Below, one piece after another: positions 29,294 to 29,387 of a DNA stretch of 64,000 nucleotides. Under the pieces are notes generated by a model that was given only the letters and a program-made list of their open reading frames with translations, had not been told where the DNA came from and ran no database searches. Within the stretch, counting starts at the first letter, position 1. Each line of letters starts with the position of its first letter. The translations under genes were made by a program, and so were the position numbers. This stretch comes from Escherichia coli (GTDB lineage Bacteria > Pseudomonadota > Gammaproteobacteria > Enterobacterales > Enterobacteriaceae). Where the stretch lies: NCBI RefSeq assembly GCF_002854065.1, contig NZ_CP024147.1; one strand, 5' to 3'.

Positions 29294-29309
29294 GATAAAA
29301 CGTTTTACC
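29294..29309. promoter_or_regulatory. MalI operator-like near-palindrome GATAAAACGTTTTACC
   Basis: One mismatch from perfect dyad; in the malI-malX divergent promoter region. Confidence 0.5.
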
Positions 29310-29371
29310 TTTTATTTATCTTATACCCGCTATTATCGTTGCGTAATGTGATTTATGCCTCACTAAAATTT

Positions 29372-29387
29372 GATAAAACGTTTTATC
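29372..29387. promoter_or_regulatory. MalI operator-like perfect palindrome GATAAAACGTTTTATC
   Basis: Perfect 16-bp dyad about 50 bp upstream of the malX start; second copy of the same motif. Confidence 0.55.

Follow-up and report, generated by a model that had tools for sequence, protein, structure and literature searches.

Repressors of the LacI family generally recognize even palindromes with a central CG, a form found for 1173 of 1303 family members (PMC4052901). According to the same study, these palindromes are 16-22 bp long, the sites usually lie at -140 to -30 from the start codon, and 72% of the regulators are autoregulated. In the lac and gal systems, more than one operator serves a single LacI-family repressor around a CRP-activated promoter (O1, O2 and O3 in lac, OE and OI in gal), and repression proceeds by looping, mediated by the LacI tetramer in the former and by GalR together with HU in the latter. 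Class II CRP promoters are those in which CRP is bound near -41.5.

The closest described system is the malX-malI control region of Escherichia coli K-12, which was reportedly the subject of operator mutagenesis by Lloyd, Godfrey and Busby in 2010. A literature search for the inducer of MalI returned nothing. In the mal system, a drop in lamB expression is expected if de-repressed MalY inhibits MalT. Deletion of malI lowers lamB expression and blocks phage lambda (PMC2900299), and malI loss-of-function mutations raise malX mRNA 7.4-fold and malY mRNA 6.2-fold (PMC12089948). Genomic SELEX counts both malI and malX among the targets of CRP (PMC3105977). The work of Sellars et al. 2017, from the Busby laboratory (PMC5543585), lists GATAAAACGTTTTATC as the "MalI DNA site" carried by oligos D71689 and D71690, describes MalI:mCherry foci in vivo on chromosomal arrays of 20 such sites ("MalO"), and states the role of MalI at its own promoter (autoregulation), citing Lloyd et al. 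2010 (FEMS Microbiol Lett 305:28) and 2008 (288:250). In the literature searched no DNase footprint of MalI was found, and the published support for binding there comes from these in vivo operator arrays.

The region described here lies within a 64,000-nucleotide stretch of E. coli DNA, hereafter the window. The control region is the same as that of K-12 throughout. Its two sites are, like other LacI-family operators, 16-bp even palindromes with a central CG, of the kind bound by a dimer through its helix-turn-helix (HTH) and hinge helices. As in lac and gal, there is more than one operator for the repressor around CRP-activated transcription; unlike lac and gal, each operator would serve its own promoter of a divergent pair, and MalI is without the tetramerization tail.

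The malI-malX locus

The genes and sites that define the locus are as follows.

28235-29263, minus strand: malI, LacI/GalR-family repressor of 342 aa (RefSeq annotation of the identical stretch, Pfam)
29294-29309, no strand: MalI operator at the malI promoter, GATAAAACGTTTTACC (repeat and pattern search, conservation, PMC5543585)
29372-29387, no strand: MalI operator at the malX promoter, GATAAAACGTTTTATC (repeat and pattern search, published MalI DNA site)
29075-29437, plus strand: spurious 121-codon N-terminal extension of malX, non-coding, no Pfam domain
29438-31030, plus strand: malX, PTS EIICB of 530 aa (RefSeq annotation, Pfam PTS_EIIC and PTS_EIIB)
31040-32212, plus strand: malY, second gene of the repressed operon (RefSeq annotation, Pfam Aminotran_1_2)

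Of 5,426 complete E. coli genomes, 5,418 match a 2.9-kb stretch surrounding the sites, 5,406 of them over at least 80% of its length, and the matching stretch is annotated malI, malX, malY. The 174-bp spacer between malI and malX (29264-29437) is 100% identical to that of E. coli K-12 MG1655, and experiments performed in K-12 therefore apply to it directly. The MalI protein differs from its K-12 counterpart at 2 of 342 residues (I301T and T312I relative to K-12), both outside the DNA-binding domain. It combines a LacI HTH (PF00356, residues 8-53, E = 7.7e-19) with a sugar-binding domain (Peripla_BP_1, PF00532, residues 65-341, E = 3e-106), the pairing of an HTH with a periplasmic-binding-protein-like domain that defines the LacI/GalR family. 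A search of the PDB for MalI itself found no structure, only those of family relatives. MalY has the fold of class I/II aminotransferases, as judged from Pfam.

The list of open reading frames for the window contains a 651-aa frame that opens at a TTG at 29075 and ends at 31030. This frame is an artifact, and the true start of malX is the ATG at 29438. The additional codons are not a gene start because RefSeq places the start at 29438, a GAGGAG motif lies 7 nt upstream of that ATG, and the Pfam PTS_EIIC match comes late, beginning at residue 140 of the 651-aa frame, which is residue 19 of the real protein. Moreover, the extension runs antisense to 189 nt of malI (29075-29263) before crossing both operators and the CRP site, and a stop codon stands in frame upstream of the ATG in 78 of 81 orthologous spacers. 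The N-terminus that remains, MTAK...LWEFFQQLGK, is conserved among orthologs. The initial annotation had already taken the extension from 29075 to be non-coding, and these observations bear it out.

The paired palindromes

Direct reading of the window places GATAAAACGTTTTACC at 29294-29309 and GATAAAACGTTTTATC at 29372-29387, which agrees with the initial annotation of a perfect palindrome and a one-mismatch copy; the start-to-start spacing is 78 bp, within the 174-bp spacer. GATAAAACGTTTTATC is its own reverse complement, a perfect 16-bp dyad, and is letter for letter the MalI DNA site of PMC5543585. GATAAAACGTTTTACC differs from it, and from the published site, by a single base, a C for T at position 15 that breaks one dyad pair. 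A repeat finder groups the two sites as one direct-repeat family with a repeat of 18 nt (ending ...TT), and it also detects a perfect 15-nt inverted match between them.

One perfect 16-bp palindrome is unremarkable in itself, since the window holds three of them against an expectation of about one. The pair is a different matter: the expected number of second copies within one mismatch is 7e-4 per 64 kb, and a search for the 16-mer with up to three mismatches gave 3 matches in the 64 kb against 0.27 expected, a number reached in none of 100 shuffles. The occurrence of paired palindromes at these positions is thus far beyond chance.

The third of these matches, ATGAAAAAACTGTTTATC at 12363-12378, was rejected as a MalI site and regarded as a chance match; it carries three mismatches, has no central CG and is without dyad symmetry. 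It corresponds to the first six codons (ATG AAA AAA CTG TTT ATC; MKKLFI...) of the open reading frame 12361-13662, which is probably rstB. A match to the MalI core with one mismatch at 54824-54835 was likewise rejected, as it overlaps a start codon, lies in coding sequence and has no dyad; the frame concerned (MKRFS...) is probably sodC, to judge from its signal-peptide sequence. The likeness of both to the MalI core is coincidental and arises from their Lys, Arg and Phe codons.

Conservation across the enterobacteria

A scan with the MalI protein, using one genome per species, recovered 80 ortholog loci at 70-100% identity belonging to about 20 genera of enterobacteria, among them Escherichia, Citrobacter, Salmonella, Enterobacter, Klebsiella, Raoultella, Kluyvera, Lelliottia, Leclercia and Trabulsiella. 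Together with the window these provide 81 spacers, and column conservation was calculated from an alignment of the 79 distinct ones. In all 80 loci malX is divergent from malI and the spacer holds exactly two sites with at most two mismatches. All 160 matches fall within the spacer; none was found elsewhere in the 541,682 bases of the ortholog loci. The operators are separated by 79 bp in 75 spacers and by 78 bp in six, namely those of the window, four Escherichia loci and one unclassified Enterobacteriaceae metagenome-assembled genome (MAG; L077).

Allowing up to two mismatches, the malI-side operator is found in all 81 spacers, and its columns have a mean conservation of 0.966, compared with 0.601 in the remainder of the spacer; for the operator columns taken together the mean is 0.97, against 0.60 at unassigned spacer positions. 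Within the malX-side operator, 14 of 16 positions are invariant, and 25 of the 42 invariant positions in the spacer lie inside the 32 operator bases. The central CG (positions 8-9) is invariant in all 162 sites. The resulting frequency matrix reads G-R-TAAAACGTTTTA-Y-C, with almost no variation within the 12-bp core or at the outer G and C and free variation at positions 2 and 15. On the evidence of the alignment, the conserved islands in this otherwise variable spacer are the two operators, the CRP site, the putative -10 elements and the ribosome-binding site.

Which of the two copies is imperfect differs by lineage. In E. coli it is the malI site that has one mismatch and the malX site that is perfect; in most Citrobacter and Klebsiella loci the reverse is found, with the imperfect copy at malX. 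This switch may result from tuning of the two affinities relative to one another, or from neutral drift at a position where change is tolerated. Separately, E. coli and the Escherichia clades nearest to it have lost a base in the interval from the malI operator to the -10-like hexamer (29310-29325 compared with loci L005-L081), and have TATAAG where other genera have TATAAA. The effect of both should be to weaken the malI promoter or to shift it.

The operators themselves are the characterized MalI operators, already known, and they are ordinary ones. What is new here is only the breadth of their conservation and the small lineage difference between 78 and 79 bp. The operator model published for K-12 extends to about 20 genera of enterobacteria, and for the 16-mer, an orthogonal operator already used for chromosome tagging, the conservation footprint provides a tolerance map in which positions 2 and 15 are free and TAAAACGTTTTA is nearly invariant. 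Otherwise the finding adds little beyond correct annotation, and it has no bearing on the question of the MalI inducer.

Promoter architecture of the spacer

Between and around the operators, four further elements can be assigned in the spacer.

29320-29325, minus strand: candidate malI -10 hexamer, TATAAG (TATAAA in other genera), a conserved island with a putative -10 role
29344-29365, no strand: CRP site common to both promoters, TGTGA-N6-CCTCA, centered at 29354.5 (half-site scan, conservation)
29384-29389, plus strand: candidate malX -10 hexamer, TATCTT, invariant, with a putative -10 role
29425-29430, plus strand: malX Shine-Dalgarno sequence GAGGAG, 7 nt before the ATG, with 29427-29429 invariant

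In the half-site scan the CRP site scores 8 of 10 with a 6-bp spacer, and a reading with an 8-bp spacer is also possible; the TGTGA at 29347-29351 and the C-x-C-A at 29359-29362 are invariant in the 79 sequences. In every one of the 81 spacers the TGTGA starts 25 bp before the malX operator, leaving a gap of 6 bp between the CRP 22-mer and the operator. All six positions of TATCTT are likewise invariant in the 79 sequences, and the hexamer overlaps the last 4 bp of the malX operator. The center of the CRP site is about 32 bp upstream of it. From the position of this hexamer, transcription of malX would start near 29396, which would put the CRP center (29354.5) at -41.5. The distance from the CRP site to TATCTT thus fits a class II promoter, to which we would assign malX, and in this malX would resemble other class II promoters, with its invariant TGTGA 25 bp before the operator. 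It differs from them in that a single CRP site is common to two divergent promoters and the CCTCA half-site is degenerate.

On the malI side, the minus-strand TATAAG lies 22 bp from the CRP TGTGA, and the malI operator begins 10 bp downstream of the hexamer in the direction of malI (11 bp in other genera). Because of this 10-bp distance the operator covers the predicted start of the malI transcript. The conserved TATAAG alone would suggest a malI start nearer 29313 than 29311. The abstracts of Lloyd and colleagues from 2008 and 2010 are said to place the operators at -24 to -9 of malX and +3 to +18 of malI, with CRP at -41.5 and -43.5. These coordinates are consistent with the geometry of the sequence, given starts near 29396 and 29311 and a CRP center of 29354.5.

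The operator centers are at distances of 38.5 bp (malI) and 58.5 bp (malX) from the respective ATG, within the -140 to -30 range of the family. A simple scan of 29200-29500 for sigma-70 promoters and terminators found no promoter and no terminator-like site; the absence of a sigma-70 match is expected for activator-dependent (CRP) promoters that have no -35 element, and the scan lends the assigned promoters no support.

A model for MalI repression

The sites at 29294-29309 and 29372-29387 are almost certainly the two MalI operators of the divergent malI-malXY control region. The identity of the sites, the family of the repressor and the conservation of the layout come from the present analysis, and binding in vivo and de-repression upon loss of malI from the published work described above; we found no evidence contrary to this reading. 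A layout of this kind, with MalI autoregulation on one side and repression of malXY on the other, had been proposed in the initial annotation, and the spacer identical to that of K-12, the published MalI site (PMC5543585), the de-repression of malXY (PMC12089948) and the 80 of 80 loci all support it.

In the proposed mechanism, a MalI dimer would sit on each 16-bp dyad, and its hinge helices would probably open the central CpG, by homology with the LacI/GalR family; inspection of the sequence by eye places Leu59 of MalI at the position of the family hinge leucine. At malX, the bound repressor would overlap the -10 hexamer just downstream of the CRP site in its class II position, so that RNA polymerase would be kept off the promoter sterically and malXY silenced. 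At malI, the repressor would lie over the first 20 or so transcribed bases and would block either open-complex formation or escape; covering the start of its own transcript, MalI would limit its own synthesis, a form of negative autoregulation. The single CRP site between the operators would serve both promoters.

The two operators most likely act independently of one another, a view that we favor because MalI has no tetramerization helix, the sites would lie on opposite faces of the DNA, and their spacing can be explained by promoter geometry.

Alternative explanations

The independence of the operators is the part of the model most open to alternatives. We see a slim chance that it is incomplete, either because MalI on the malX site touches CRP 6 bp away, in a CytR-like form of anti-activation, or because the choice of A or G (T or C) at positions 2 and 15 represents a tuned affinity that determines which of malI and malXY is released first by inducer. 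It is distinctly improbable that MalI bridges both operators by looping the intervening 78 bp, in the manner of the LacI tetramer or of GalR, or contacts the adjacent CRP as CytR does. In favor of such cooperation, the spacing is strikingly constant at 78 or 79 bp in all 81 spacers, as is the placement of the malX operator relative to the CRP site. However, MalI ends at residue 342, immediately after the sugar-binding domain (to which Pfam extends to 341), and it aligns with residues 2-325 of the 360 of LacI. Since the alignment stops at residue 325, MalI lacks the tetramerization helix of LacI, and a dimer is therefore expected. A separation of 78-79 bp also corresponds to about 7.4-7.5 helical turns, which would place the sites on opposite faces of the DNA, and the sole change in length, from 79 to 78 bp, falls between the malI operator and its -10 hexamer. 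The constant spacing is accounted for because each operator is fixed to its own -10 element and to the one CRP site that both promoters share. Reportedly, according to the 2010 abstract of Lloyd and colleagues, repression of either promoter does not require the operator of the other, which also counts against cooperation.

A further possibility is that the palindromes are the targets of another LacI-family regulator, such as PurR, instead of or besides MalI. The AAACGTTT core is common to PurR boxes, which speaks for this proposal. MalI sites have indeed been treated as hard decoys for PurR (PMC2577325), yet the same study finds the MalI sequences energetically well separated from the cognate sites of PurR, for which they score as non-cognate. 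Compared with the PurR operator, of the ACGCAAACGTTTGCGT type, the outer four positions differ, being GATA/TATC in the MalI sites and ACGC/GCGT in that of PurR. The sites moreover accompany a malI ortholog in 80 of 80 loci and occur nowhere else in the 542 kb of those loci, the 16-mer recruits MalI:mCherry in vivo (PMC5543585), and mutations in malI alone de-repress malXY (PMC12089948). Recognition by such a regulator is accordingly very improbable, and MalI is retained as the protein that binds the two sites.

It is more improbable still, to the point of being barely credible, that the repeats act as nucleic-acid structure, whether by forming a hairpin in the leader RNA of malI, a cruciform or a terminator. 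Each 16-mer can fold upon itself, and the malI mRNA would carry the malI-side copy at its 5' end, but the two hairpins contribute only -0.9 and -1.5 kcal/mol, the leaders of malI and malX both fold with negligible stability, that of malI no better than shuffled sequences (z = -0.53), and the malX-side copy would be upstream of the transcript start. Rfam gave no family match in the whole window, and, as noted above, no terminator-like site was detected near the operators. At positions 2 and 15 the changes do not compensate for one another (GATAAAACGTTTTACC, GCTAAAACGTTTTATC); this, together with the weakness of the hairpins, favors recognition of half-sites by a protein over structure.

Finally, that these are functionless chance palindromes in AT-rich intergenic DNA has a negligible probability: perfect 16-bp palindromes are expected and found in 64 kb, but a second copy so nearly identical is not, and the sites have been kept across about 20 genera, whereas the surrounding spacer has not.

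Other features of the window

A second palindrome pair is found near the uid genes. The perfect 16-bp palindrome TATTGGTTAACCAATA lies at 27240-27255, about 113 nt upstream of the uidR start, and a copy with three mismatches, GATTAGTTAACCAATT, at 26192-26207, about 46 nt upstream of the uidA start. A search of the window with the uidR-type palindrome gave 3 matches against 0.27 expected, including one with three mismatches at 29777, inside malX. The uidR/uidA layout is the same as that of MalI, with a single site each for regulator and target, and TATTGGTTAACCAATA and GATTAGTTAACCAATT are probably operators for UidR (GusR). The third perfect 16-bp palindrome of the window, TCCTCAGCGCTGAGGA at 33265-33280, falls within the 3' end of add (32316-33317) and is compatible with a chance occurrence.

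The uid region also harbors a complete IS1 of 768 bp (22324-23091), inserted in the 3' part of uidB. The element has an exact terminal repeat at 23069-23091 and insA/insB open reading frames at 22339-23036. The uidB reading frame (23070-24338) runs into IS1, and uidC (20884-22149) is intact. The same IS1 insertion is found in E. coli CUWW06, together with an adjacent deletion of 667 bp.
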